From: Candidatus Aminicenantes bacterium
GTDB taxonomy: Bacteria; Acidobacteriota; Aminicenantia; Aminicenantales; UBA4085
Length of the DNA: 64,000 nucleotides
Direction: 5' to 3'
Assembly: GCA_963729855.1 (NCBI GenBank)
Contig: CAVSPT010000005.1
Location: forward strand, 1,271,221 to 1,335,220
Part shown: piece by piece, positions 1-48,470 of the stretch
How the letters are laid out: every line of letters starts with the position of its first letter
Position numbering within the stretch: the first letter of the stretch is position 1
The notes under the pieces: model-generated
Seen by the model: the letters and a program-made list of their open reading frames with translations, nothing else
Database searches by the model: none
What the model was told of the DNA's origin: nothing
Made by a program: the position numbers and the translations under genes

Positions 1-275
1 GATTCTACTCTTTCCTCGGCCCGGATTTTAGAACGAATCCCAAGTCGGGACGGCTTGCTCCCGGAAAAAAGCTTGTCTTCATCCTGACGCAGGGCAATCC
101 CGATGAGCAGACTTATGCTGCTGTCCTGGCCCGGCACCGGCTGACATTCGACATGTGCGGATTCGCGGAGGTGTATCCGGTCCAGGTCTGTGGGGCACGG
201 CCAGGAGGCGAAGCGCAAGTCCCGGAGAGAACCATGGCCCGGCTTGCCGAGGTCGCTAAGGCCCTCCTCGCCTGA
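1..275 (+). CDS. 3' end of a CDS that starts upstream of the window (…GKKLVFILTQGNPDEQTYAAVLARHRL…KALLA*); product unknown, possibly flavodoxin-like
   Basis: Open frame from the window edge to TGA at 273-275. Not in the ORF track because it has no start codon inside the window. The flavodoxin-like guess rests on weak motif resemblance only. Confidence 0.3.
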   Translation, partial: FYSFLGPDFRTNPKSGRLAPGKKLVFILTQGNPDEQTYAAVLARHRLTFDMCGFAEVYPVQVCGARPGGEAQVPERTMARLAEVAKALLA

Positions 276-547
276 AATGAAAAAGGGGCTTATCATCCCC
301 GACCCCAATTTCGAATCAGGCTATAATTGCGGAAAAGGATGTTGAGCACGAATTTTTCGCAAATTTCTCGACTGCTTTAAAGTCCGATCTCCTTATAATC
401 CGAGCAACTGCTCCGCATTGCCATTGGTGATTCGCTCCAGATCGGCCTTACTCACCGGGAGCTTGTCCAGGAAAGTCCGGCCCTCCGCCATCGAAGCGTA
501 GGGATGGTCGATCGAGAACAAGATCCGGTCCGCTCATCAGTCCAGCC

Positions 548-813
548 AAAATACCTTTCGTGTTACCTTTCGTGTTGAGACCACTAAACGGCCTTTTTTA
601 GGGTATTTTGACTCTTTTGAAAACGGGCCAAACTCGGGCATAAAATTGACCGATGAAAAAACTTAACTTACGCATTGATAAGGGGATAGTAGCGGACGGG
701 GCTTGTGCCGGAGGAGGGAATCGAACCCACACATCCATCGCTGGATACGGGATTTTGAGTCCCGCGCGTCTGCAAGTTTCAACAACCTCTAATTGATTGA
801 TCCTGAGCGGCGA
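548..813. repeat. Direct repeat copy 1 (~266 bp) containing a tRNA-Leu-like 3' fragment
   Basis: Matches 5926..6191 at roughly 90% identity in the same orientation. The two copies diverge only in a ~20-nt internal stretch. Confidence 0.85.
706..765 (-). other. 5'-truncated tRNA-Leu(CAA)-like pseudo-tRNA (anticodon arm, long variable arm, T-arm and 3' acceptor strand only)
   Basis: Minus strand reads cggga-cTcaaaa-tcccg (anticodon CAA), then a long variable hairpin atcca-gcga-tggat, then a GTTCGATTCC T-loop, then 3' acceptor CTCCGGC-A. No complementary 5' acceptor strand (GCCGGAG) and no D-stem are present. Confidence 0.4.
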
Positions 814-1002
814 GAAAATGGACCTTCCGCCAAGGGGGTTGTGTTAAAATATGCGCCCGTCTGATGATTCATTTTGGCGACCGTTTGGGTGAGCTAAATA
901 CGAAGAAGCGGTCTATGCGGAATATCTGGTAGTCCCCCAAATGGGCGGACGCTGAAGAGCGCACCTTTTATAAGAAGGGCCGGCAAGGTCCGAGGAGGTC
1001 GA

Positions 1003-1851
1003 GTGACGAGGCAATGGGCCGTTTTATCGCTGATCCTGGCCGTCGTGACGGTGTTCGTCGTCCCCGGCTTTACCAAAGACACGGTTGTCGAGAGCAAGTG
1101 GGCGTCGGCTCCCATCAAGATCGAAGGCCTTAAGCAGGACTGGCAAGATTCGACGTTCCTGACCGACGGCGGGTCGAAGGCGCAGTATGCGCTGAGGAAT
1201 GATGGAGAAAACCTATATGTCATCTTTCTCTTCAAGGATCGCATGTCCCCGTCGACGATCGAGTTCACGGGCCTGAAGGTCTTCTTCAACGGCGAAGGCA
1301 AGAAAAGCGAGGACCTCGGCGTCCACTTCAAGAAAAAGCGCGTCACGGCCGACGCCCTGATCGCTTACAAGGAGCAAAAGGGAGAGGCGTTGACCGATGC
1401 CGGGAAAACCGAGATCCGGAAAGAGAGCATGTACACGCTTTTCGAGGCTGACATCATCAACGAGAAAAAGGCGACGGCGCCGGCCGACCCGGCCGTGCAG
1501 ACCGACCCTCCGATCTTCATCACCGGCTTTCAGGACAAGGTCCTCATCTATGAGCTCCGGATCCCCCTTAGCCGAACGAACCAGCCCGGCGGTATCGGCG
1601 CGGAGCCGGGCAAGACGATCAAGCTCGGCTTCGAGTGGGGAGGGATGACCGCGCAAATCATGAGGGACATGATGGCCGGGAAGGTCGCGGAGGGCGGCAA
1701 GGCCGATCATGATCTCGGAATTGACGAGGGTATGGGGGCCGAAATCGATACCACCGGCGCCCTGCAGAGCGGCGGTGAGTATCGCCGCGATCCCCGGACA
1801 AGGATGCATTCCTTCTGGATCGACGTGAAGTTGGCCGCCCAGCGCTCTTGA
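1003..1851 (+). CDS. Secreted hypothetical protein (N-terminal signal peptide)
   Basis: GTG start with RBS GAGGAGG at 992-998. Hydrophobic N-terminus MTRQWAVLSLILAVVTVFVVPG. No recognisable domain. Confidence 0.6.
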   Translation: MTRQWAVLSLILAVVTVFVVPGFTKDTVVESKWASAPIKIEGLKQDWQDSTFLTDGGSKAQYALRNDGENLYVIFLFKDRMSPSTIEFTGLKVFFNGEGKKSEDLGVHFKKKRVTADALIAYKEQKGEALTDAGKTEIRKESMYTLFEADIINEKKATAPADPAVQTDPPIFITGFQDKVLIYELRIPLSRTNQPGGIGAEPGKTIKLGFEWGGMTAQIMRDMMAGKVAEGGKADHDLGIDEGMGAEIDTTGALQSGGEYRRDPRTRMHSFWIDVKLAAQRS

Positions 1852-2237
1852 AGCTGCCTCCGACCTGTGAAGTGAAAAATCTCGGCTCAACGGCCTCCGG
1901 AGCCGGCGGCCGACAACCCAAAGAGCTGTGGGGACGGAAGCGATTATAGGCCCGCCGGCCTCTTCCGGATCCGGGCCTTCCTCGGCCTCAACCTCGTCGA
2001 ACGTATATCCGCAACTCAAAGATCGATACATATGGCATTTCCGCTCTCTGGATGGCTCGCCTACAGATTGCTCCGCACAGCGCGCTCGGAGACTTGACGC
2101 CACGGCAGTTTGTCGAACAGAGATGAAGCCAAAAAACTCCATTTTTTGCTGGGCCAGTTTTTGGGTGAGGCTCCGAACGAATTCGATGCGGTGAAAATAA
2201 TCTATTTTTTAAGGGTGTATGATCGGTTTGCTAAAAA

Positions 2238-2573
2238 TTATACTTCATCAACGTGTTTGTTGTGATCTGTTTTTGTCATTTCAAAGATCCAAATATTAGT
2301 AAATTCTTCGAGAACAATCTTAGCCATTATGGTTGATTTTTCTTTGGTACAACACGGACATGCTTCTTTTAATCTCGGCTGGGATGCTTCTAGAGTGGAT
2401 TTGAGCAATACATCGAAACATTCGTCATATTCTTTACGATATGTGGCGGCATAGGTGTTTATCCATTCACTAACTGCCTCAGGACCGGGATCGCGTCCAA
2501 TTTTAATCCCCTTGAACCATTTGTGTTTAAGAGCTTCTTGTATCTGATTTCTCATTAATGTCTTCATGTCCAT
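2238..2573 (-). CDS. Small hypothetical protein (111 aa, Cys cluster C..CPCC) in an AT-rich islet
   Basis: ATG start preceded by GGAGG. Local GC is about 40% against about 67% for the window. No recognisable family. Confidence 0.5.
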   Translation of the reverse strand: MDMKTLMRNQIQEALKHKWFKGIKIGRDPGPEAVSEWINTYAATYRKEYDECFDVLLKSTLEASQPRLKEACPCCTKEKSTIMAKIVLEEFTNIWIFEMTKTDHNKHVDEV

Positions 2574-2800
2574 AGGCGTACCTCCGGCTGCTTAGTACAT
2601 TTTATCATTATTCTCAGGTGGACCCCATTATCTGGACAACGGAAAGGCTTGATTAAGGTGGATATTGAGCCCGCCGTATTTGTCATTTTAACTATTTCTA
2701 TATCCAGAAGCCATTTTCCCGTAGATCGCCGGAAAAATGTCTTCGCTAATTGACCTACAAACGGCGATCTAACGACAATCCATATCAAACCCTCGAGCAA
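2564..2800 (-). CDS. Doubtful small ORF (TTG start) overlapping the 5' end of the 111-aa gene
   Basis: Listed in the ORF track. It has no ATG and a weak start context. It lies in the AT-rich islet. Confidence 0.2.
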   Translation of the reverse strand: MLEGLIWIVVRSPFVGQLAKTFFRRSTGKWLLDIEIVKMTNTAGSISTLIKPFRCPDNGVHLRIMIKCTKQPEVRLWT

Positions 2801-2939
2801 AGGCCATCGCTATTAGCAAGAAAAAGCAAAGGCGAGTCGTCAAGGAGAAAAGAGAGCGGCGCCGGCGGCTGAATAATGATTTCTAAACTGTCTGACGTCA
2901 GCGAAATTCGGACAGCGATTGCTTTCTCCTAAGCTGAGG

Positions 2940-4620
2940 CTCGGACCTTTGATTGACGTCAACTATTATTTCCGGCCCGTTGCCTCAATCAAAAATGTTA
3001 CTGAAGAATCGGCGCCTTGTCGAGGCTTATTGGAGTAGCCTCGGCCGATACTTCAGATGCGTTTTGTCCGCCGAAGACAAGACCTCTTGCCATCACATGA
3101 CGCCAGGCTCTGACCCTGCGCTGCAAAGTTCGTAGTTGCACGTCTGGAAAGCGTCCCGGCTGCTCTGTTTGGAGACGCACGAACAGTTCCTTGGCTGTGG
3201 CGTCTGGCGTATCTTGGAGCCAAAGAAGGACATCCGGCCAAACCGATTCAAACGGGTCCTTACGGGTGCGCCAATAGTGAGGCGTCTTAGGGAAAGTACG
3301 ATGGGTAGCGCGGACTTCCCCCTGTCGCCATAGCTCTCCCAGTTGTTGCATAAACTGCTCAAGGCTCTCGCGGCCCGGCCCCGATGCCGAGGTGTCACGG
3401 CAGGCTAATGCCGCCAACACTTCCTGCTGTTGCCGAATCCGATGAAGCATGGCTACCGGGTCAACGGACCTACCTATTAGCTTAAGCGACTTCTTTATAT
3501 CATCGGGCACGGCCGGATGGCCTAAGAGCCGTTCGCAGGGCGTCATCGGCTTCTCGTAATAACGTCTGACCTTTGCGGCTATCTTTTCCTTTTCCCGCAA
3601 CTTGAAGGACGGTTGGAAATGGTTTACGTAAAGCCGGACGGCCTGATAAAGGGTTGCCAGGGCTTGGCCGGCGACGATTCCCGTGAACCGATCATGGCCA
3701 ACAAACCTTCGGATAACGGCCCCGTTCTTCTGTTCTATCCAAGCTTGATCGTTCTTCCGATAGGCCCGGGATCTTGTGAACTCGATGTGTTTTCCCTGGC
3801 AATAGTCGAGTAGCGTGTCGTTGATGAACGCGCCATCATTATCGGAATCGATTCCCAGGATGGGGAAGGGAAACTGTCGGCTAATCACATCGAATGCTTC
3901 CACAACCAGTTCCTGGCTTCTAGCAAGAAGAGGAACGCTTTCTACCCAACCCGAGCAGATGTCGACCGCAACCAGACTATAGATATAAGCTCCAGCCGTC
4001 GAGCCGCCGTTATGCTCGACAAAATCAATCTCCAGATATCCAGGCGGCGGGTCATTCCAGTCGGAAAAGGTTCTAACTCGGATACTACCGCTCGGTTTTT
4101 TAGGCCTTCGCCGTTTCCGTTTGCCGGGCTTGGCTTCTTTTCGTACCGGCTGCAGGAGCCTGTCTAGGGTTGAAGCACTCGCTGCCAAAAGACATCTCCG
4201 CACTTCCGGATCGGGCTGCAGATGGCCAAATCGCTCCATCGCATCTACCAGAGCCGGCAAAATGGACTTCAGTCTCTTCCCGCATATCCGATCTCCAGCC
4301 TCCCATGCGATAACCAGAGCCTTCCGGACCGCTTCATTATAAATGCGGAGGCCGTATCCCCGCTTAAGCCCATGCTCAGCAGGGGGCGAGTTGAGGAGCC
4401 GAACGGCATGCTTTCGATGGAATCCCGTCAACGCTTTGAACTCATCCAATATCTTGGTCTTTTCCATCTTCGATGAGAGCCGATAACGTCCACTTAGAGC
4501 TCCGACGAGCTCTACCCTTGCCCTCTTGCTGATCCGAGTTGACATCGTTGCTCTCCTTTTTCGGTAACATTGAATTGAGGCAACGACATGATCTCAGTAA
4601 CAAAATAGTTGAGTCAATGC
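2940..4620 (-). mobile_element. Insertion sequence (~1.68 kb) with ~60-bp imperfect terminal inverted repeats and a single transposase gene
   Basis: Left end 2940-2998 (…tgattgacgtcaactatt…cgttgcctcaatcaaaaatgttac) is the reverse complement of right end 4570-4620 (gtaacattgaattgaggcaacg…aaatagttgagtcaatg), with a few mismatches and indels. The element encloses the 2998..4545 transposase. Confidence 0.55.
2998..4545 (-). CDS. DDE transposase, rve/integrase-core superfamily (IS481/ISNCY-like; family uncertain)
   Basis: N-terminal HTH-like region. Catalytic triad candidates are EIDFVEH, then DSDNDGAF about 65 aa later, then IEQKNG about 35 aa after that (D-D-35-E spacing). Confidence 0.8.
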   Translation of the reverse strand: MSTRISKRARVELVGALSGRYRLSSKMEKTKILDEFKALTGFHRKHAVRLLNSPPAEHGLKRGYGLRIYNEAVRKALVIAWEAGDRICGKRLKSILPALVDAMERFGHLQPDPEVRRCLLAASASTLDRLLQPVRKEAKPGKRKRRRPKKPSGSIRVRTFSDWNDPPPGYLEIDFVEHNGGSTAGAYIYSLVAVDICSGWVESVPLLARSQELVVEAFDVISRQFPFPILGIDSDNDGAFINDTLLDYCQGKHIEFTRSRAYRKNDQAWIEQKNGAVIRRFVGHDRFTGIVAGQALATLYQAVRLYVNHFQPSFKLREKEKIAAKVRRYYEKPMTPCERLLGHPAVPDDIKKSLKLIGRSVDPVAMLHRIRQQQEVLAALACRDTSASGPGRESLEQFMQQLGELWRQGEVRATHRTFPKTPHYWRTRKDPFESVWPDVLLWLQDTPDATAKELFVRLQTEQPGRFPDVQLRTLQRRVRAWRHVMARGLVFGGQNASEVSAEATPISLDKAPILQ

Positions 4621-4782
4621 GCCGGGAATTTTAATTGTCGCTGATCAGACCTTGCCCAAATCGACGATTTTGAGTTTACCGGCGGCGTGCCCCCATCCGA
4701 ACGAGATCAGGTAGACGGCCAAGAGGATCAGGACCGATCCTAGCGCGCGCGGCGGAAAGGCTCGAGCATGGGCATCCGGCGA

Positions 4783-5832
4783 TCACCTCGGACCCTTTGC
4801 GGCTGCACCGCCGCTGATCCTCCCCACGAGGAAGTCTTCGAAACCGCCCAGATCCTTCCACTCCATGGCGCAAAGCATGGCTTTCCCCGCCGGATCGATC
4901 CGAGTGAAGCCATCGTCGGTGACCCGGATCGTCAGGTTCTCCATAATGCAGAAGTCCTTCTCTTTCGCCAGAGCGAGGTAGACCGCCACGGTGTCGAAGA
5001 GCGTTGTGGACTCCCGGTCGGCGTCGGCGGCGTTCTTTCCTAGCCAAATACGGTACGTCTCAAGGAGCGCCCGCGCTAGGGGATCCTTCGAGCGGCGCAG
5101 CGCCGCGTACCTCTCCCCGCGGATGGTAACCAAGCCGCAGGTATCGAGGGGCGTTATGGTCATCGGCCAGGCGGCGGCAAAGGCCCGCTGAGCGGCCGGG
5201 ATGCCGGCTTTGATGTTCCACTCGGGATCCGGGTCCCTCTTCCCTCCATAGCCCCTCCGCACGCTGCCGTCCATGCCGACGAACCGCGCGTGCTCCGCAA
5301 TCCGCGGCTCCCGCTCGAGCGCGGCGGCGATCGTCGGAAGCGGACCGATGCAGATGAGGATGATCGGCTCTCGGGAACCCATCAGGAGATCGATCAAGGC
5401 CTGGACACCGTCCCGGTGTACTTTTCCGGGATACTTTGCCAGGTCGTAACCCTTGACCCAGCCCGCTTGACCGCCTTCACCGGTTACGCCCGTCACCTCG
5501 GGGCCGAGCCCGATTGGGATGCCGCTCCGGCCAGCCGCATCGAGAAGCTTCGCGGTCACTTTAGCCCGATAGAGGGGCTTCCCGTAGTCCGTGACGACGA
5601 GCTTCAGGTCTAGCTCGGGGGAACGAAGGAGGAGGGCCAGAGCCCAGGAGTCGTCGATGTCATCCCCGATGTCCGTAACCAGGATCGCCGGGGCGCCGCG
5701 CGCGGGCTTCTCAAGATCGCCAGGATTCCCGGCTGTTCCGGCGCCCTCGAACACGCGGTGAATCGCGTTTCCCGTGAGCATCAAAGACACAACGGCGATG
5801 GGGAGAATGAGAATGCGCCAGAAACAGATCAT
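4783..5832 (-). CDS. Inosine-uridine-preferring nucleoside hydrolase (IUNH family), secreted
   Basis: N-terminal aspartate cluster DIGDDIDDSWALA, typical of IU-nucleoside hydrolases. Signal-like N-terminus MICFWRILILPIAVVSLMLTG. ATG at 5832 with GGAGGAG RBS. The track ORF extends to 6108 only because the upstream repeat happens to be open in that frame. Confidence 0.8.
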   Translation of the reverse strand: MICFWRILILPIAVVSLMLTGNAIHRVFEGAGTAGNPGDLEKPARGAPAILVTDIGDDIDDSWALALLLRSPELDLKLVVTDYGKPLYRAKVTAKLLDAAGRSGIPIGLGPEVTGVTGEGGQAGWVKGYDLAKYPGKVHRDGVQALIDLLMGSREPIILICIGPLPTIAAALEREPRIAEHARFVGMDGSVRRGYGGKRDPDPEWNIKAGIPAAQRAFAAAWPMTITPLDTCGLVTIRGERYAALRRSKDPLARALLETYRIWLGKNAADADRESTTLFDTVAVYLALAKEKDFCIMENLTIRVTDDGFTRIDPAGKAMLCAMEWKDLGGFEDFLVGRISGGAAAKGPR

Positions 5833-5925
5833 ATTCGCTCCTCCCCTGGATTCGGGCGAGCCCGAGAGAGGCGGGTTGACCCGCCTCCTGCTTAGTGTAC
5901 CACCCGTTAAGTGAAAGTTCGAGGT

Positions 5926-6191
5926 AAAATACCTTTCGTGTTGCCTTTCGTGTTGAGAGCGTAATACGGCCTTTTTTAGGATATTTTGACTCTTTTGAAA
6001 ACGGGCCAAACTCGGGCGCAGAATTGACCGATGAAAGAACTTAACATACTCATTGATAAGGGGATAGTAGCGGACGGGGCTTGTGCCGGAGGAGGGAATC
6101 GAACCCACACATCCATCGCTGGATACGGGATTTTGTGTCCCGCGCGTTTTCCATACTCAACACCCTCTAATTGATTGATCCTGAGCGGCGA
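5926..6191. repeat. Direct repeat copy 2 (~266 bp) containing a degenerate tRNA-Leu-like fragment
   Basis: Paralog of 548..813. The anticodon-loop position 33 is A in this copy rather than U. Confidence 0.85.
6084..6143 (-). other. Degenerate tRNA-Leu(CAA)-like 3' fragment (copy 2)
   Basis: Same arm pattern as 706..765 but with the loop cAcaaaa. The 5' half is absent. Confidence 0.35.
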
Positions 6192-6460
6192 AAGTCTCCG
6201 TCTTCCCGTCTTCACGAATTGGCAATCGATACTTGATCTACTTGAAAATCTCCCGGATTTGTTCCAGCCGATACAAGATCTTTGGTTGGGCAAAAAGAGT
6301 TATAAGATTTTTTACTTGAGCGCGCAGCTTTTTTTCCTTTAATATCCGTCGTTTCCTCAGTTCTTGATTTAAGCCAGCCTATACCGGAGTCGATTATTTT
6401 GACGCTCAAATGTCAAATGGGCGTCAAAGGGCATCTAGTTTATTACCCCCGAGGAGGGAA

Positions 6461-10441: not shown

Positions 10442-10584
10442 ATCCTTGTCGAGGGCCGGCGGAAGGAAGATCATCGCTTCCGTCCCCACGGATCTTTGGG
10501 TGATCGACCGCCGGCTCCAGGGGCCTTGGAGCCGCGGTCTCTCATTTCACAGGCGGTCCATTCAAGGAGGGCGGGTCAATTCTC

Positions 10585-11310
10585 ATGGGTTCGATGCTGT
10601 TCGAGGTCAAAAACCTTTCGAAGCGATTCGGCCGGATCGCCGCGCTGGCGGACGTCAGCTTCCACGTGCGGTCGGGCGAAGTGCTTGGGCTGATCGGTCC
10701 CAACGGCGCCGGCAAGTCGACGCTGTTCGAGTGCGTCGCCGGAGTTTTGCCGTCCGACGGCGGGACGATGAGCGCCGGCGGCCGGCCGGTGGGGGCGCGG
10801 GAGCGCCGTTCCCTCCTCTTTTACGTTCCCGACGGAATCACGCCGTGGCCGGCGCAGTCCGTGGGCTGGGCGCTCGATTTTACAATCGGGTTTCTCGGTG
10901 GCCGGTCGGATCTTCGCCGGGACGTGGTCGAGCGTCTCGACCTCCGGGAGTTGCTGCGCCAGCCGATCGGCACGCTCTCGAAGGGCCAGCGGAAGCGCGC
11001 GCTTCTCGCCGTAGGCTTGCTGACGCGCCAGCCGGCGCTGCTCATCGACGAGCCCTTCGAGGGTCTCGACCTGCGCCAGGCGCGCGACATCGCGGCGGCG
11101 TTCCGGGCGCACGTGGCCGGGGGACGGACGCTGTTTCTCTCGATTCACCAGATCGGCGATGCCGCGCGCTTCTGTGAGCGGTTCGTTCTGCTCAGCGGCG
11201 GGCGGATGTGCGGCCAAGGCACCGTCGAGGAACTGGCGGCCCTGGCGGCCGCGGGGAATGTGTCGGGCCCGTCCCGGGACCTGGAAGAGGTGTTTCTTGC
11301 GCTCACCTAG
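10585..11310 (+). CDS. ABC transporter ATP-binding protein
   Basis: Walker A GPNGAGKST, ABC signature LSKGQRKR, Walker B LLIDEPFEGLD. Confidence 0.85.
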   Translation: MGSMLFEVKNLSKRFGRIAALADVSFHVRSGEVLGLIGPNGAGKSTLFECVAGVLPSDGGTMSAGGRPVGARERRSLLFYVPDGITPWPAQSVGWALDFTIGFLGGRSDLRRDVVERLDLRELLRQPIGTLSKGQRKRALLAVGLLTRQPALLIDEPFEGLDLRQARDIAAAFRAHVAGGRTLFLSIHQIGDAARFCERFVLLSGGRMCGQGTVEELAALAAAGNVSGPSRDLEEVFLALT

Positions 11311-26122: not shown

Positions 26123-26647
26123 ATGCTTAAGAAAGAGAAAGGCTTCACCCTCATCGAGCTGCTCATCGTTGTGGCGATCATCGGCATCCTGGCCGCTCTG
26201 CTCATCCCCAACGCCATGACCGCTCTGCAGAAGGCGAAAGTCCGCGGCACCCAGAAGGACATCGCCACCATCGCCACGTCCCTGGCCGACTATGTCACGG
26301 ACCACGGCGTGCCGTTCGCGGAGAACGGGAACATCGACGCCACGGGCAAGGCCGCCCTGTCGCCGATGTACATCAAGGTGCTGCCGTTGAACGACCAGTG
26401 GGGCACGCCCTTCAAGGTCTACACGGGCGTCAACTGCAACCAGTACGGGATCACGGGCTCGGCCACGGACGACTTCCTGGTCGCCTCGTACGGGCGCGAC
26501 GCCACCATCGAGTCCTGGACGTACAATGCGGCCACGCCGGAAGCGGGGCTGTACCAGATATCGACCACGGCGGACTTCAACAAAGACCTGGTCAATCTGG
26601 ACGGATCGTTCATTCGCGGACCTCGGGCCGGCGTCTCCGCCACCTGA
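26123..26647 (+). CDS. pilA: Type IV pilin (prepilin with class III signal, N-methylation site)
   Basis: The N-terminus KGFTLIELLIVVAIIGILAA is a classic prepilin-peptidase site. RBS CAGGAGG. Confidence 0.85.
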   Translation: MLKKEKGFTLIELLIVVAIIGILAALLIPNAMTALQKAKVRGTQKDIATIATSLADYVTDHGVPFAENGNIDATGKAALSPMYIKVLPLNDQWGTPFKVYTGVNCNQYGITGSATDDFLVASYGRDATIESWTYNAATPEAGLYQISTTADFNKDLVNLDGSFIRGPRAGVSAT

Positions 26648-26670
26648 TCTTCAAACGGAACGTTCCTCCG

Positions 26671-28257: not shown

Positions 28258-28779
28258 ATGAAACGCGAAAGCGGATTCACGCTCATTGAGCTGCTCATCG
28301 TTGTGGCGATCATCGGCATCCTGGCCGCTCTGCTCATCCCCAACGCCATGACCGCTCTGCAGAAGGCGAAAGTCCGCGGCACCCAGAAGGACATCGCCAC
28401 CATCGCCACGGCCCTGGCCGGCTATGTGACGGACCACGGCGTGCCGTTCGCCGAGAACGGGAACATCGACGCCACGGCCAAGTCCGCCCTGTCTCCGATG
28501 TACATCAAGGTGCTGCCGTTGAACGACCAGTGGGGCACGCCCTTCAAGGTCTACACGGGGGCCAACTGCAACCAGTACGGGATCACGGGCTCGGCGTCGG
28601 ACGACTTCCTGGTCGCCTCGTACGGGCGCGACGCCACCATCGAGTCCTGGACGTACAATGCGGCCACGCCGGAAGCGGGGCTGTACCAGATATCGACCAC
28701 GGCGGACTTCAACAAAGACCTGGTCAATCTGGACGGATCGTTCATTCGCGGACCTCGGGCCGGCATCTCCGCCACCTGA
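28258..28779 (+). CDS. pilA: Type IV pilin paralog (about 95% identical to 26123..26647)
   Basis: Same prepilin leader/N-terminus (GFTLIELLIVVAIIGILAA). Differs from copy 1 at about 10 residues. RBS GAGGAGG. Confidence 0.85.
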   Translation: MKRESGFTLIELLIVVAIIGILAALLIPNAMTALQKAKVRGTQKDIATIATALAGYVTDHGVPFAENGNIDATAKSALSPMYIKVLPLNDQWGTPFKVYTGANCNQYGITGSASDDFLVASYGRDATIESWTYNAATPEAGLYQISTTADFNKDLVNLDGSFIRGPRAGISAT

Positions 28780-35467: not shown

Positions 35468-35544
35468 ACGCCCCCATGATATTACATCGGCCCCCGATTT
35501 GAAATATTCCCCCGGCCTTACAACTCTTCACTTTCCCCAGGGCG

Positions 35545-35690
35545 AAGGGCATGCGATCCGAAACCCCTCGACGAGTGAACGGGCATGGTTTCCCGACTCT
35601 TGTCGGGAAGAGCGAATGAGGAGGGGAGCGAAAATCCTCGCTGGGGATTTTCGAGTGTTTCGGATCGCGTGTCATGAGGCCTCCTTACTT
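35545..35690. repeat. Structured repeat element, copy A, in the lpxK 5' leader (12-bp perfect terminal inverted repeat GCGATCCGAAAC / GTTTCGGATCGC, two internal 8-bp hairpins, conserved core)
   Basis: Core GAAACCCCTCGACGAGTGAACGGGCATGGTTTCC is shared with 47533..47580 and 47640..47760. Internal hairpins are ttcccgac-aaga-gtcgggaa and gaaaatcc…ggattttc. Confidence 0.55.
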
Positions 35691-35761
35691 TACAGGGCCT
35701 GAAATATTGGCCTATAATGAACGGCGTCAAAACGCGCCGAAGCGCGCTTGGAGGATCAGAG

Positions 35762-36628
35762 ATGAACCGAAAGATTTTTTCCGCGGGCGTCCTTATCACG
35801 GCCGCGCTGGCCGTCGTTTCCTGCCAAAAGAAGACCCAAGTCAAGGGCATCGAATTGGGCGTCTCGTTCGGCGAGGCGACCCTGTCCGACAACCTGATGA
35901 CCGAGGCGATGTATAAGTGGAAGACCGGTTCGGACTTCAAGCCTTTCGACCGGGATTACACGATTTTCGTCCATTACTGGCACGACAGCAACCTCCTCAT
36001 CCAGGATGATTACACGCCCGACGTGCCCACCTCCAAATGGGAGAAGAACAAGGAATACACCTTCAAGCGGCGGCTCTATATCCCCCCCTTCATCGACGAA
36101 TTCGATCCCCAGTTCAAGGGCGAAGAGACGCTCCGGTTTTCCTCGGGATTCTACAATCCGTTCGACCGGACCGGGAAATCGCAGCGCGAGGTCCTTTCCA
36201 AGAAGCTGAAAGTCCTCCCGCCCCCGCTGGGCACGCCCGAGGTCATCTACGAGAGCGGCTGGTTCGACCAGGAGACCAACCGCGATTCCCCGCTCAAACA
36301 GTGGCGCTGGACGGCCAAGGAAGCCAAGTGCATCGTCGACAATCCCAAGCGCGATGCGGTCCTGGTCATCCGCGGCGGGGCCTACTTGGAAGCGGTCAAG
36401 GACCAGAAGATCACCTTCAAGATCAACGACCTGGTCCTGGACGAATTCGTGCCTGAACCGGGCATCTTCGAGAAATCCTACGCTATTAAGAAGGAACAGC
36501 TCGGCGATAAAGACGAATTTTCCCTGACGATAAGCGTCGACAAGCCTTTCATCCCGGCCAAGTTCATCGCCGGGTCGAAAGACGACCGCCAGCTGGGCAT
36601 CCAGGTCGGGCTGGTCTATTTCCGCTGA
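35762..36628 (+). CDS. Hypothetical lipoprotein
   Basis: ATG at 35762 with GGAGGA RBS. Lipobox LAVVSC. Confidence 0.6.
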   Translation: MNRKIFSAGVLITAALAVVSCQKKTQVKGIELGVSFGEATLSDNLMTEAMYKWKTGSDFKPFDRDYTIFVHYWHDSNLLIQDDYTPDVPTSKWEKNKEYTFKRRLYIPPFIDEFDPQFKGEETLRFSSGFYNPFDRTGKSQREVLSKKLKVLPPPLGTPEVIYESGWFDQETNRDSPLKQWRWTAKEAKCIVDNPKRDAVLVIRGGAYLEAVKDQKITFKINDLVLDEFVPEPGIFEKSYAIKKEQLGDKDEFSLTISVDKPFIPAKFIAGSKDDRQLGIQVGLVYFR

Positions 36629-46637: not shown

Positions 46638-47753
46638 TCAGAACCGGTCGGGATGGAGAATCCGGGCCAGGGCTTCCAGGGCATCGTAGAGCCGCGGGCC
46701 GAAGCGGCTGGCCGCGTTCTGGTCGAGAAAGAGGATGCGGCCGGTCCGGACGGCCTTCAGGTCCCGCAGCCCCGCTTGGGACCGGAACCAGTCGGCGGCC
46801 CGGCGGAAATTGGCTTCGGAGCCGGCCAGGATGACGAAGGCGTCCGGATCGTCGCGAATGAGCGCTTCACGGCCGTATTCGAACCAGCGCTGGCCGATCG
46901 CGGCCGTGATGCTGACGGCCTTGGCCTTGGCTAGCAGATCGTTGAAATAGCTGTCCCGGCCGAACGTCCAGAGCCCCATCCCTTCGAGGCTGAGAAACAC
47001 GCGCGGCGCTTCCCGGACCGCGGACAGCGCGGCCGCGACCCGATCGAGCTTGCGGGCCAGTCCGACGTTCAGTCGGGCGGCCTCATCCGCGCGCCCGGTG
47101 GCCGCGCCGATCCGATCGATCATGTGGGGCACGGAGGAGAGATCGTTCTTGATGTCCAGGGTGAAGAGCGGGACGCCGATCTCCTCCAGCTTGCGCAGCA
47201 CGCTGAGCGGGTTGCCGCGGAAGGCGATCACGATGTCGGGGCCGAGAGCCTTGATCCGTTCAACGTCCGGATCGAGGAAGCCGCCGATCTTCGTTTTCGC
47301 CCGGGCCGCGGGAGGATAGTCGCAATAGCGGGTGACGCCGATGATGCGGTCGTCCAAGCCGAGGGCGAAGAGGATCTCGGTGATGTTCGGGGCCAGGGAA
47401 ATGATGCGCTTCGGCGGCGCGGCCAGGACTAACGTCTTTCCAATGTCGTCGGTGACCCGGACCGCCTGGGCGCGGGAGGGCGCGGGGGCCAGGGCCAAGC
47501 CGATGAGAATGGCGCAAATGAGGGCGAACGGTGTCGGGGGGAAAACCCGTCGACGAGTGAGCGGGCAGGGTCCTTCAATAATGCGCGATGGGTGTGAGAG
47601 TAAGACAGAGTTTTTGTTCGCTGGGCGAGGCGGGTGAGTCTCAAAACCCGTCGACGAGCGAGCGGGCACGGTTCCTCGCCGGGAGGCGAGGAGAGCGAGC
47701 GAGGAGCGGATCGCATTTCCTCGTTGGGGAAATGCGAGCGTTTTGGAACTCAT
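46638..47753 (-). CDS. Periplasmic substrate-binding protein, BtuF / ABC-type cobalamin-Fe3+-siderophore class (Tat signal); true start unresolved
   Basis: Mature domain …ISLAPNITEILFALGLDDRIIGVTRYCDYP… Tat motif TRRRVF plus a hydrophobic core ending AQA. The only in-frame ATG is 80 codons upstream, inside the repeat copies. No cognate permease or ATPase genes are adjacent. Confidence 0.6.
   Translation of the reverse strand: MSSKTLAFPQRGNAIRSSLALLASRRGTVPARSSTGFETHPPRPANKNSVLLSHPSRIIEGPCPLTRRRVFPPTPFALICAILIGLALAPAPSRAQAVRVTDDIGKTLVLAAPPKRIISLAPNITEILFALGLDDRIIGVTRYCDYPPAARAKTKIGGFLDPDVERIKALGPDIVIAFRGNPLSVLRKLEEIGVPLFTLDIKNDLSSVPHMIDRIGAATGRADEAARLNVGLARKLDRVAAALSAVREAPRVFLSLEGMGLWTFGRDSYFNDLLAKAKAVSITAAIGQRWFEYGREALIRDDPDAFVILAGSEANFRRAADWFRSQAGLRDLKAVRTGRILFLDQNAASRFGPRLYDALEALARILHPDRF
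47533..47580. repeat. Structured repeat core, copy B (inside the annotated 5' end of the BtuF-like ORF)
   Basis: GAAAACCCGTCGACGAGTGAGCGGGCAGGGTCC. On the minus strand it encodes GPCPLTRRRVF. Confidence 0.55.
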
Positions 47754-47760
47754 CCGCCGA
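47640..47760. repeat. Structured repeat, copy C (tandem to copy B; contains internal 9-bp and 7-8-bp hairpins)
   Basis: Core CAAAACCCGTCGACGAGCGAGCGGGCACGGTTCC plus hairpins cgcatttcc…ggaaatgcg and cctcgcc-tccc-ggcgagg. Sits immediately 3' of the KaiC-like gene. Confidence 0.5.
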
Positions 47761-47768
47761 GCCCTCCT

Positions 47769-48470
47769 CTACATGATGAGGAGCGTCTTCGGATCGAGCT
47801 TGAGCTTGAGCAGTCCGGGCGGCGGGTAGTCGCGGTCCTTGACCACACGGAGCTCGACGTGATCGCCCTGGGCGTGCAGGGTGATTAGCACGTCGATGCC
47901 GTCCACGGCGTCTTTGAGGAGATAGGGCATCCCCGACTCCTCGTAGAGAGGCGTGCCGTTCTCCTTGAGCGAGGCGCTGAACCAAACTTCCAGGCCGAGT
48001 TTCCCGGCGAAGGCCTTGAACTTGGCCAGGTCTTCCATGGCCGGCCGGGTGAAATCATAGCCGTCGACGATGACGGCGTCGGCGGCGAATTTGCCGTAGG
48101 AAACCAGGGCCTCGACACTGCGCAGGACCTGCTCCGTGCGGGTGCCTTCCTGCTTGAAATTCATGATGACCCGGTTCTTGACGATCTCGTCGTGGATGTC
48201 CACCGCCGATTCCAGCCGGCGCTTCTTGGCCAGCTCGGTGAAGATGTCCTCGTACCAGTTGATAATGTAGTCGACCCGGCTGGAATACGAGACGTGGATG
48301 ACGGGGCGGCCCTGGAGAAGCTTGTCCGTGGCGATGTGGACCAGGCAGGCCGTCTTGCCCACGCCCTTGGGCGAGGCCAGGACGCCGATCTGACCCCTGC
48401 TCAGCCCCCCGTGGATCGCCTTTTCCAGGACCCGTAGGGGGCTGCGCTTGATGAGCTCTTCTTTGACCAT
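47769..48470 (-). CDS. RecA-superfamily ATPase, single-domain KaiC/RAD55-like
   Basis: Walker A SPKGVGKT. Walker B-like AVIVDGYD. 233 aa. Confidence 0.6.
   Translation of the reverse strand: MVKEELIKRSPLRVLEKAIHGGLSRGQIGVLASPKGVGKTACLVHIATDKLLQGRPVIHVSYSSRVDYIINWYEDIFTELAKKRRLESAVDIHDEIVKNRVIMNFKQEGTRTEQVLRSVEALVSYGKFAADAVIVDGYDFTRPAMEDLAKFKAFAGKLGLEVWFSASLKENGTPLYEESGMPYLLKDAVDGIDVLITLHAQGDHVELRVVKDRDYPPPGLLKLKLDPKTLLIM

Follow-up and report, generated by a model that had tools for sequence, protein, structure and literature searches.

A lineage-restricted, structured intergenic repeat with a predicted G·A-rich three-way junction in Candidatus Aminicenantes

Amongst described bacterial elements, the REP and BIME sequences of the enterobacteria and the REPINs of Pseudomonas resemble the repeat reported here in being non-coding, structured and intergenic, and in often lying directly after stop codons. 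With REP/BIME sequences our repeat also shares inverted pairs, mosaic clusters with other motifs, a patchy distribution among relatives and the placing of hairpins in read-through transcripts. A REP, however, is 20-40 nt long, forms an imperfect palindrome with GTAG on its 5′ side, and is linked to a RAYT (Y1 HUH) transposase. The element described here is 145-185 nt long and, in place of a short palindrome with a 5′ tetranucleotide, has a predicted branched three-way junction in which the junction sequences are invariant and tandem G·A motifs are stacked.

The mosaic elements of neisserial genomes (RS units flanked by dRS3) and the Correia- and ERIC-type MITEs offer a second comparison. As in those systems, different interiors are found between common inverted termini (those of our repeat and of a second family, family II), and the elements occupy the same intergenic hot spots, nest within one another and would be co-transcribed with their neighbours. 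The terminal sequences GGGCGAGGGG and CCCCGAGCCC are conserved and mutually inverted except for the central GA/GA, with different termini in the more divergent ‘subtype 2’ copies, and the multiple dispersed copies are polymorphic for presence at orthologous sites. Unlike MITEs, the copies are not framed by a fixed-length target-site duplication: only one, at locus L003 (loci in relatives are numbered with the prefix L), has a perfect 6-bp direct repeat, TTCCTA, and the other flanks are pyrimidine-rich. The helices vary but stay complementary, rather than being those of near-identical copies, and there is no known parent insertion sequence with matching ends.

Several features recall the attC sites of integrons: stems that keep structure over sequence, a folded strand antisense to its neighbours, a variable distal structure, contact with the stop codon of the upstream gene, and an inner AAC/GTT at the base of the terminal stem. 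In contrast to attC, the termini depart from the RYYYAAC/GTTRRRY core sites, the central junction is conserved in sequence, the flanks are housekeeping genes and not cassettes, and it is the element alone, without a gene, whose presence varies; none of the loci examined showed an integron integrase. With the cobalamin riboswitch (RF00174) the repeat shares a short B12-box-like string, on the minus strand, and a position beside a periplasmic binding protein gene. It differs in lacking a match to the covariance model of that riboswitch, in its probable structured strand, which is the opposite one, in its absence from orthologous BtuF-like loci, and in standing also beside lpxK, lepA, tolB, xerC-like and thiS genes. 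More generally, the copies are not sense 5′ UTRs of related genes conserved among orthologues, as a cis-regulatory leader would be; the G+C-rich hairpin and U-tract of an intrinsic terminator are missing at both full loci of the window; and no reverse transcriptase gene, as in a retron, adjoins any copy examined.

The window, by which we mean the whole 64 kb stretch of DNA that was analysed, holds two full copies and one truncated copy (Table 1). An earlier note, made from the letters of the window alone, had flagged a structured repeat at 35545-35690. The observation is real and every sequence detail reported there is present, although the element runs longer than proposed and includes an outer stem. 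The 12-bp perfect terminal helix is fully complementary (GCGATCCGAAAC, 35553-35564, with GTTTCGGATCGC, 35657-35668) and grows to 15 pairs, one of them U·G, when 35550-35564 is paired with 35657-35671. The two 8-bp hairpins are likewise found, as TTCCCGAC/GTCGGGAA (35590-35609) and GAAAATCC/GGATTTTC (within 35628-35653), and copy A folds at -59.8 kcal/mol (z = -4.6 against shuffled sequence).

A core shared, in one orientation, by copy A and two places upstream of the BtuF-like gene had also been proposed. If one mismatch is allowed, the window contains three sites of the 18-nt core TCGACGAGTGAGCGGGCA (35568, 47550 and 47651), all of them on the + strand; shuffles predict 0.14 such sites by chance and none of 100 reached three, and a repeat search of the window puts the three sites into one family. 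The two copies claimed within 47533-47760 exist but are unequal, one being truncated and the other full. Copy B retains the 5′ strands of the outer stem and P1, and the core as far as the start of P3. The 3′ end of copy C abuts the stop codon (47769-47771) of a minus-strand KaiC-like gene, to which the element is antisense. With filters off, a search of all 64 kb with our covariance model returned copies A and C and the truncated copy B, and nothing further.

Table 1. Copies of the repeat in the window, parts of copy A and neighbouring promoter-like sites.
Feature	Position	Strand	Details
Promoter-like site	35476..35503	-	TTCAAA-16-TATCAT; directly upstream of lpxK ATG (35467); kept in orthologues without the element
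Copy A, full element	35540..35685	+	Outer stem, P1, junction, P3, P4, UCCU tail; covariance model 151 bits
Outer stem, 5′ strand	35540..35549	+	GGGCGAAGGG; family consensus GGGCGAGGGG; from alignments
P1, 5′ strand	35550..35564	+	CATGCGATCCGAAAC; partner 35657-35671, GTTTCGGATCGCGTG
Purine-rich helix, 5′ strand	35569..35580	+	C-GA-C-GA-GT-GA-AC
Bulge 5′ of P3	35581..35589	+	GGGCATGGT; family consensus GGGCANGGU; invariant alignment columns
P3 hairpin	35590..35609	+	TTCCCGAC-TCTT-GTCGGGAA
Purine-rich helix, 3′ strand	35612-35623	+	GC-GA-AT-GA-G-GA-G
P4 hairpin	35628..35653	+	Conserved loop CTCGCTGG; helix 8
Outer stem, 3′ partner	35673-35681	+	CATGAGGCC, degenerate form of CCCCGAGCC
Promoter-like site	35689..35718	+	TTTACA-18-TATAAT; serves gene 35762-36628; kept in all orthologues
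Copy B, truncated	47522..47576	+	Covariance model 15 bits, model positions 35-90
Copy C, full element	47623..47768	+	Covariance model 163 bits

In the predicted fold, a long stem closes a tight three-way junction. At the foot of the stem, GGGCGAGGGG faces CCCCGAGCCC, so that GGGC-GA-GGGG lies opposite CCCC-GA-GCCC with a tandem G·A in the middle; some subtype-2 copies have A-U or U·G pairs in place of this G·A. P1, of 12-15 bp, differs in sequence among copies, with both-side changes in 10 of the 13 pairs of helix 3, and its inner AAAC/GTTT (in RNA, AAAC/GUUU) is nearly invariant. One arm contains the short helix P2, the purine-rich helix, the bulge and P3. The purine-rich helix has the consensus 5′-C GA C GA NN GA GC-3′ against 3′-G AG G AG NN AG CG-5′, that is, three stacked tandem G·A motifs split by two covarying Watson-Crick or wobble pairs. 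These two central pairs (47/114 and 48/113 of the 20-copy alignment) are seen as GC, CG, UA, GU and UG, and in L002, L003 and L133 Watson-Crick pairs (CGAC/GUCG) stand in for one tandem G·A. A kink-turn has a bulge of 3 nt with tandem sheared G·A pairs immediately after it; by comparison, subtype-1 copies have the tandem G·A, a bulge of 1 nt, and a C-G pair between bulge and G·A; in subtype-2 copies three extra nucleotides pair with the opposite strand.

The distal parts of the fold are more variable. P3 ranges from 20 to about 65 nt in other copies, and all eight of its pairs change on both sides with 99% of cells still paired. The P4 loop reads CUCGCNGG across the family, a different hairpin stands in the place of P4 in L132 and L133, and L124 has an optional 33-nt hairpin in the junction. 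At the 3′ end, a CCUCCU tail is semi-conserved on the + strand; the tail of the minus strand is A-rich.

Compensatory change, which the earlier note had named as one test of its proposal, is abundant in the helices. RNAalifold on a MAFFT alignment of 11 copies predicted 49 pairs, with changes on both sides in 28. With 20 copies, 35 of the 49 pairs show changes on both sides and pairing is seen in 95.4% of predicted pair cells; shuffles give 74.7% (none of 500 reached the observed value), and sliding the partners gives 36-57%. The 20-copy alignment had been fitted to the covariance model; the unfitted alignment gives 93% paired. The suggestion that the element might be MITE- or REP-like lies closer to this evidence than the riboswitch does, although with covariation so abundant it is not a simple REP.

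The structure is likely to be carried by the + strand of the window, antisense to lpxK and the BtuF-like gene, because the G·A motifs, the folding energies and the counts of G·U against A·C all favour that strand. RNAalifold gives the + strand a consensus energy of -67.6 kcal/mol and the minus strand one of -55.3 kcal/mol, 12 kcal/mol worse; with DNA parameters, copy A gives -39.1 against -31.4 kcal/mol. Tandem G·A motifs are confined to the + strand; their minus-strand counterparts are U·C and C·U mismatches. The model pairs include about 19 G·U pairs against 8-13 A·C mismatches, a modest asymmetry among related copies, and the subtype-2 extensions hold further G·U pairs. The minus strand also out-folds shuffled sequence (z = -4.3), as a riboswitch or attenuator read from that strand would, but its consensus energy is the worse of the two and the purine-rich helix would there be a series of U·C/C·U mismatch runs.

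Signs of constraint are visible at a single locus. Copy C and its orthologous copy in L125 are 84% identical, against 58% at fourfold-degenerate sites of the adjacent gene. Few positions of the family-invariant junction have changed between these two copies, compensatory changes are present in P1, and the whole of P3 has been exchanged. This pattern is a sign of either purifying selection or recurrent gene conversion by copies under constraint, and not of simple decay. A near-invariant junction together with above-neutral conservation would exceed what decaying selfish DNA retains, and hints at a locus-level function that the reading as a repeat leaves unnamed.

The copies occupy spacers between genes of unrelated function, with no association with any one gene, and the neighbours (lpxK, lepA, tolB, xerC-like, thiS) do not fit a gene-specific regulator. 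A convergent gene has its stop codon 0-19 nt away from the 3′ end of the structured strand in L002 (LepA), L119 (TolB, then Pal), L058a (a XerC/D-like integrase), L045a (ThiS, then AOR) and L081. One copy, L084b, lies in sense orientation after a cytochrome gene; the neighbours of the family also include a cytochrome and histidine kinase pair and an M14 peptidase. Seven copies have a stop codon no more than 24 nt away, and six of these are antisense, a suggestive bias that is not statistically significant. Head-to-head pairs occur in L006 and L058 and a tandem pair in L084. In L119 (3747-4279) the element stands between tolB and a pal-like OmpA-family gene, where a further 530 nt of non-coding DNA holds hairpins such as CCCCTCCTGCGCAGGAGGGG.

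Two divergent promoter-like sites flank copy A, and orthologous loci with or without the element retain both. The placement of this copy in the lpxK 5′ leader, as the earlier note had it, is contradicted by the minus-strand site (35503-35476), which separates the element from the lpxK start codon and so puts copy A upstream of the lpxK promoter. We also considered whether the element carries a promoter of its own, and rejected this, as the TTTACA-18-TATAAT site is kept in orthologues without the element and is native to its gene. In a consensus scan, 18 of 19 copies had no sigma-70-like promoter within 250 nt upstream on the structured strand, in a genome in which such promoters are enriched (15 found, 3.1 expected). 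No terminator-like site follows the element at either full locus of the window, where no U-tract stands 3′ of the closing stem; canonical hairpin-plus-U terminators do occur in the same genome. A coding reading was likewise rejected: variable positions are out of codon phase, copies B and C lie in different frames, and the Shine-Dalgarno-plus-ATG at the minus-strand entry is not conserved.

About 20 further copies were found in Aminicenantes genomes and metagenomes, and by pattern scans and covariance model alike, true copies were seen only on Aminicenantes-like contigs. A scan of one genome per species with a 20-base pattern returned true copies only in Candidatus Aminicenantes L002 and L003, and a match in Paraburkholderia that we attribute to chance. 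A looser 18-base scan of metagenomes returned at least 120 loci; about 90% of the matches listed are chance occurrences in coding DNA and some ten are true copies. The covariance model, R1, was built from 11 copies and then detected the more divergent subtype-2 copies at the same loci, as well as copies in orthologous loci fetched by way of the neighbouring proteins, whose closest relatives are named Aminicenantes or Acidobacteriota.

Searches elsewhere gave no copy in 115 kb from two other Aminicenantes lineages and no match in the viral contigs, plasmids and phages searched. Rfam gave no match for the whole window at the gathering score. At E values up to 10, copy A and copies B/C drew only chance-level matches to C/D-box sRNAs and STnc180, as did a family II locus (L140) at E values up to 5, and a literature search for an RNA motif in Aminicenantes returned nothing relevant. 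Within this coverage, the repeat is restricted to a subclade of Candidatus Aminicenantes.

Comparison of orthologous sites shows that copies are gained, lost or swapped among close relatives. Between the KaiC-like and BtuF-like genes, with relatedness given as amino-acid identity of the neighbouring KaiC-like protein to that of the window, the site is filled by this repeat in the window, L003, L124/L125 (81%) and L132/L133 (85%). The site is empty in L126-L128 (79%) and, judging by gene coordinates only, in the P0002 contig (89%), with the genes 8-10 nt apart in both, and in L129/L130 (76%), with a gap of 68 nt. In L140, the closest relative (91%), and in L131 (85%) it is filled by family II. 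At the lpxK site, a subtype-2 copy is found at a different position in L135-137, a fragment of family II in L134, and a short remnant only in L138 and L139; the last two are too divergent from the site of the L126 copy for an alignment to set insertion boundaries.

Copy C has orthologous copies in L125, L124 and L003, and truncated orthologues of copy B are found in L125 and L140. L124 and L125, whose KaiC-like proteins are identical, differ by the 33-nt hairpin in the full copy and by one array unit. In these two loci (L124 10700-11210, L125 7525-7940), four and three truncated copies, respectively, stand in tandem beside the full copy, each unit comprising the 5′ strands of the outer stem and P1 and reaching at most to where the core begins. 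An A+T-rich spacer (25-30 nt) comes after each unit.

Family II is a second structured repeat of about 215 nt (z = -6.0), with the termini GGG(Y)CGAGGGG...CCCCGAGCCC and a different interior, and it too has no Rfam match. It was seen at the same two intergenic sites, at L140 812-1032 (minus strand), at L131 about 10700-10935 (minus strand) and as a fragment at L134 2745-3000. Intergenic DNA of these genomes also contains a recurrent small REP-like hairpin, GTCCTACGC(N4-5)GCYAGGAC: at about 2790-2870 in L134, where it is nested within the family II element, upstream of copy a in L058, and downstream of the copy in L008.

Our data are most consistent with a non-coding, lineage-restricted, structured interspersed repeat of the REP/BIME/NIME/MITE kind that is under constraint, a reading to which we give a probability of about 0.6. 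A trans-acting factor would recognize or propagate the element in the form of a folded single strand (DNA or RNA), and such recognition would explain why the helices stay complementary despite sequence drift while the junction is fixed. Its effect on the host would consist mainly in adding a large stable hairpin to read-through transcripts, as with REP elements. On this reading, neither lpxK nor the BtuF-like gene is under ligand-responsive control by the element.

The enzyme behind such propagation was sought without success around the copies that we examined, none of which has a linked transposase, reverse transcriptase or HUH enzyme, and an autonomous insertion sequence with the same ends is missing from about 0.4 Mb of related DNA. 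Nothing ties the repeat to the rve integrase of the window: across the window the terminal motif shows no enrichment, and no match to it lies close to the integrase gene, in a mobile region whose ends are undefined. If the flanking genes are co-oriented with replication, the structured strand would template leading-strand synthesis, which is not the side that IS200/IS605-like single-strand transposition uses; the GC skew of the window is uninformative for the replication strand. As a repeat family of an uncultured phylum, the element is now defined by a covariance model, by its subtypes and by a sister family with the same termini. The combination of covariation, G·A helix, strand-specific fold, missing promoter and above-neutral conservation makes it a good test case for how structured repeats spread and persist, and may point to an unrecognized single-strand-specific enzyme.

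The distinguishing features of the repeat, as read from its sequence, are the branched G·A-rich fold, the conserved junction and the termini common to two families. On a rather unlikely but more consequential reading, the family would be a previously undescribed folded single-stranded class with a G·A-rich three-way junction, held by purifying selection at the level of the locus and serving as substrate of a strand-specific system. Candidates under that reading include a promoter-less retroposon with folded cDNA, and an orientation-specific insulator or protein-bound RNA.

A further possibility, which we hold only tentatively, is that the copies are small structured RNA genes or cis-antisense RNAs expressed from the + strand, acting through a bound protein or through pyrimidine-rich tails complementary to Shine-Dalgarno sequences. 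The strand-specific structure, with its G·U pairs, tandem G·A, tight three-way junction, variable P3 and optional 33-nt hairpin, would suit an RNA of this kind, as would the conservation of orthologous copies well above neutral sites and the semi-conserved CCUCCU tail. Against this, the copies largely lack promoters in a genome where these are enriched. There is no terminator-like site after the element, copy A is flanked by two promoters that face outwards, and the family shows gain and loss among close relatives and truncated copies in arrays.

The lack of a promoter is accommodated by a retroposon model, in which minus-strand RNA from host read-through is reverse-transcribed in trans and the folded + strand cDNA integrates. 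In six of the seven stop-touching copies, a proportion that is statistically not significant, host transcription would copy the minus strand; the structured strand is that of the cDNA; and the truncated copies (B, p1-p4 of L124, L140 and L067) all retain the would-be 3′ end of the RNA, after which an A-rich stretch follows. The L124 truncated copies may, however, be tandem duplicates of a single event. Copy A and the copies in L135 and L126 lie in divergent promoter regions where read-through is unlikely, and L084a/b, L058b and L006b are oppositely oriented. With no reverse transcriptase found near any copy and target-site duplications inconsistent, we regard this model as improbable.

Equally improbable is an orientation-specific transcription insulator or terminator whose 3′ end faces a protected gene boundary, be it a convergent 3′ end or a co-directional promoter. 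The geometry is that described above: in six independent loci only 0-19 nt separate the 3′ end from a convergent gene's stop codon, and in copy A and L113 it stands directly upstream of a promoter. In L084a it is upstream of TTGTGC...TATAAT, promoter-like by eye and unscored in the consensus scan, and the head-to-head pairs of L006 and L058 would act both ways. A termination role is putative, however. The closing stem lacks the U-tract of the canonical hairpin-plus-U terminators present in the genome, and relatives dispense with the element at empty sites where the genes are 8-10 nt apart.

Least tenable is the proposal that lpxK and the BtuF-like gene have in their 5′ leaders a minus-strand cis-regulatory RNA of the riboswitch or attenuator type, since the single orientation upstream of both genes and the B12-box-like string beside a Peripla_BP_2 gene, both of which are real, are outweighed by position (the conserved promoter-like site before lpxK), strand, gene association (copies after lepA, tolB, xerC-like and thiS genes) and orthology (lpxK and BtuF-like loci without the element), and Rfam models, that for cobalamin included, gave no match at E values up to 10.

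Our analysis removes a false riboswitch lead beside lpxK and the BtuF-like gene from the annotation. Open frames across these elements can also be read as coding, the BtuF-like gene of the window (46638-47753, minus strand) being an example. It reads ATT (47510-47508) where the closest relative, L140, has an ATG start, and upstream its frame stays open across both copies, B and C, as far as position 47753, where there is an ATG with GAGGAGG before it. Gene callers may report a BtuF-like product of 371 aa, of which about 75 residues, including a TRRRVF string, are encoded by the element.

Other repeats were seen elsewhere in the window. Positions 1-6200 have a lower G+C content (55%), an rve-type integrase ORF (2998-4545, minus strand) and flanking 273-nt direct repeats (541-813 and 5919-6191, 91% identical), and are probably an insertion sequence or other mobile region. 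An 84-nt inverted repeat (1864-1947 and 10470-10553) is 82% complementary, with arms 8.5 kb apart. A 300-nt direct duplication (26141-26440 and 28273-28572) is 96% identical over a distance of 2.1 kb, and two strong hairpin-plus-T terminator-like sites lie near it, at 26670 and 28797.
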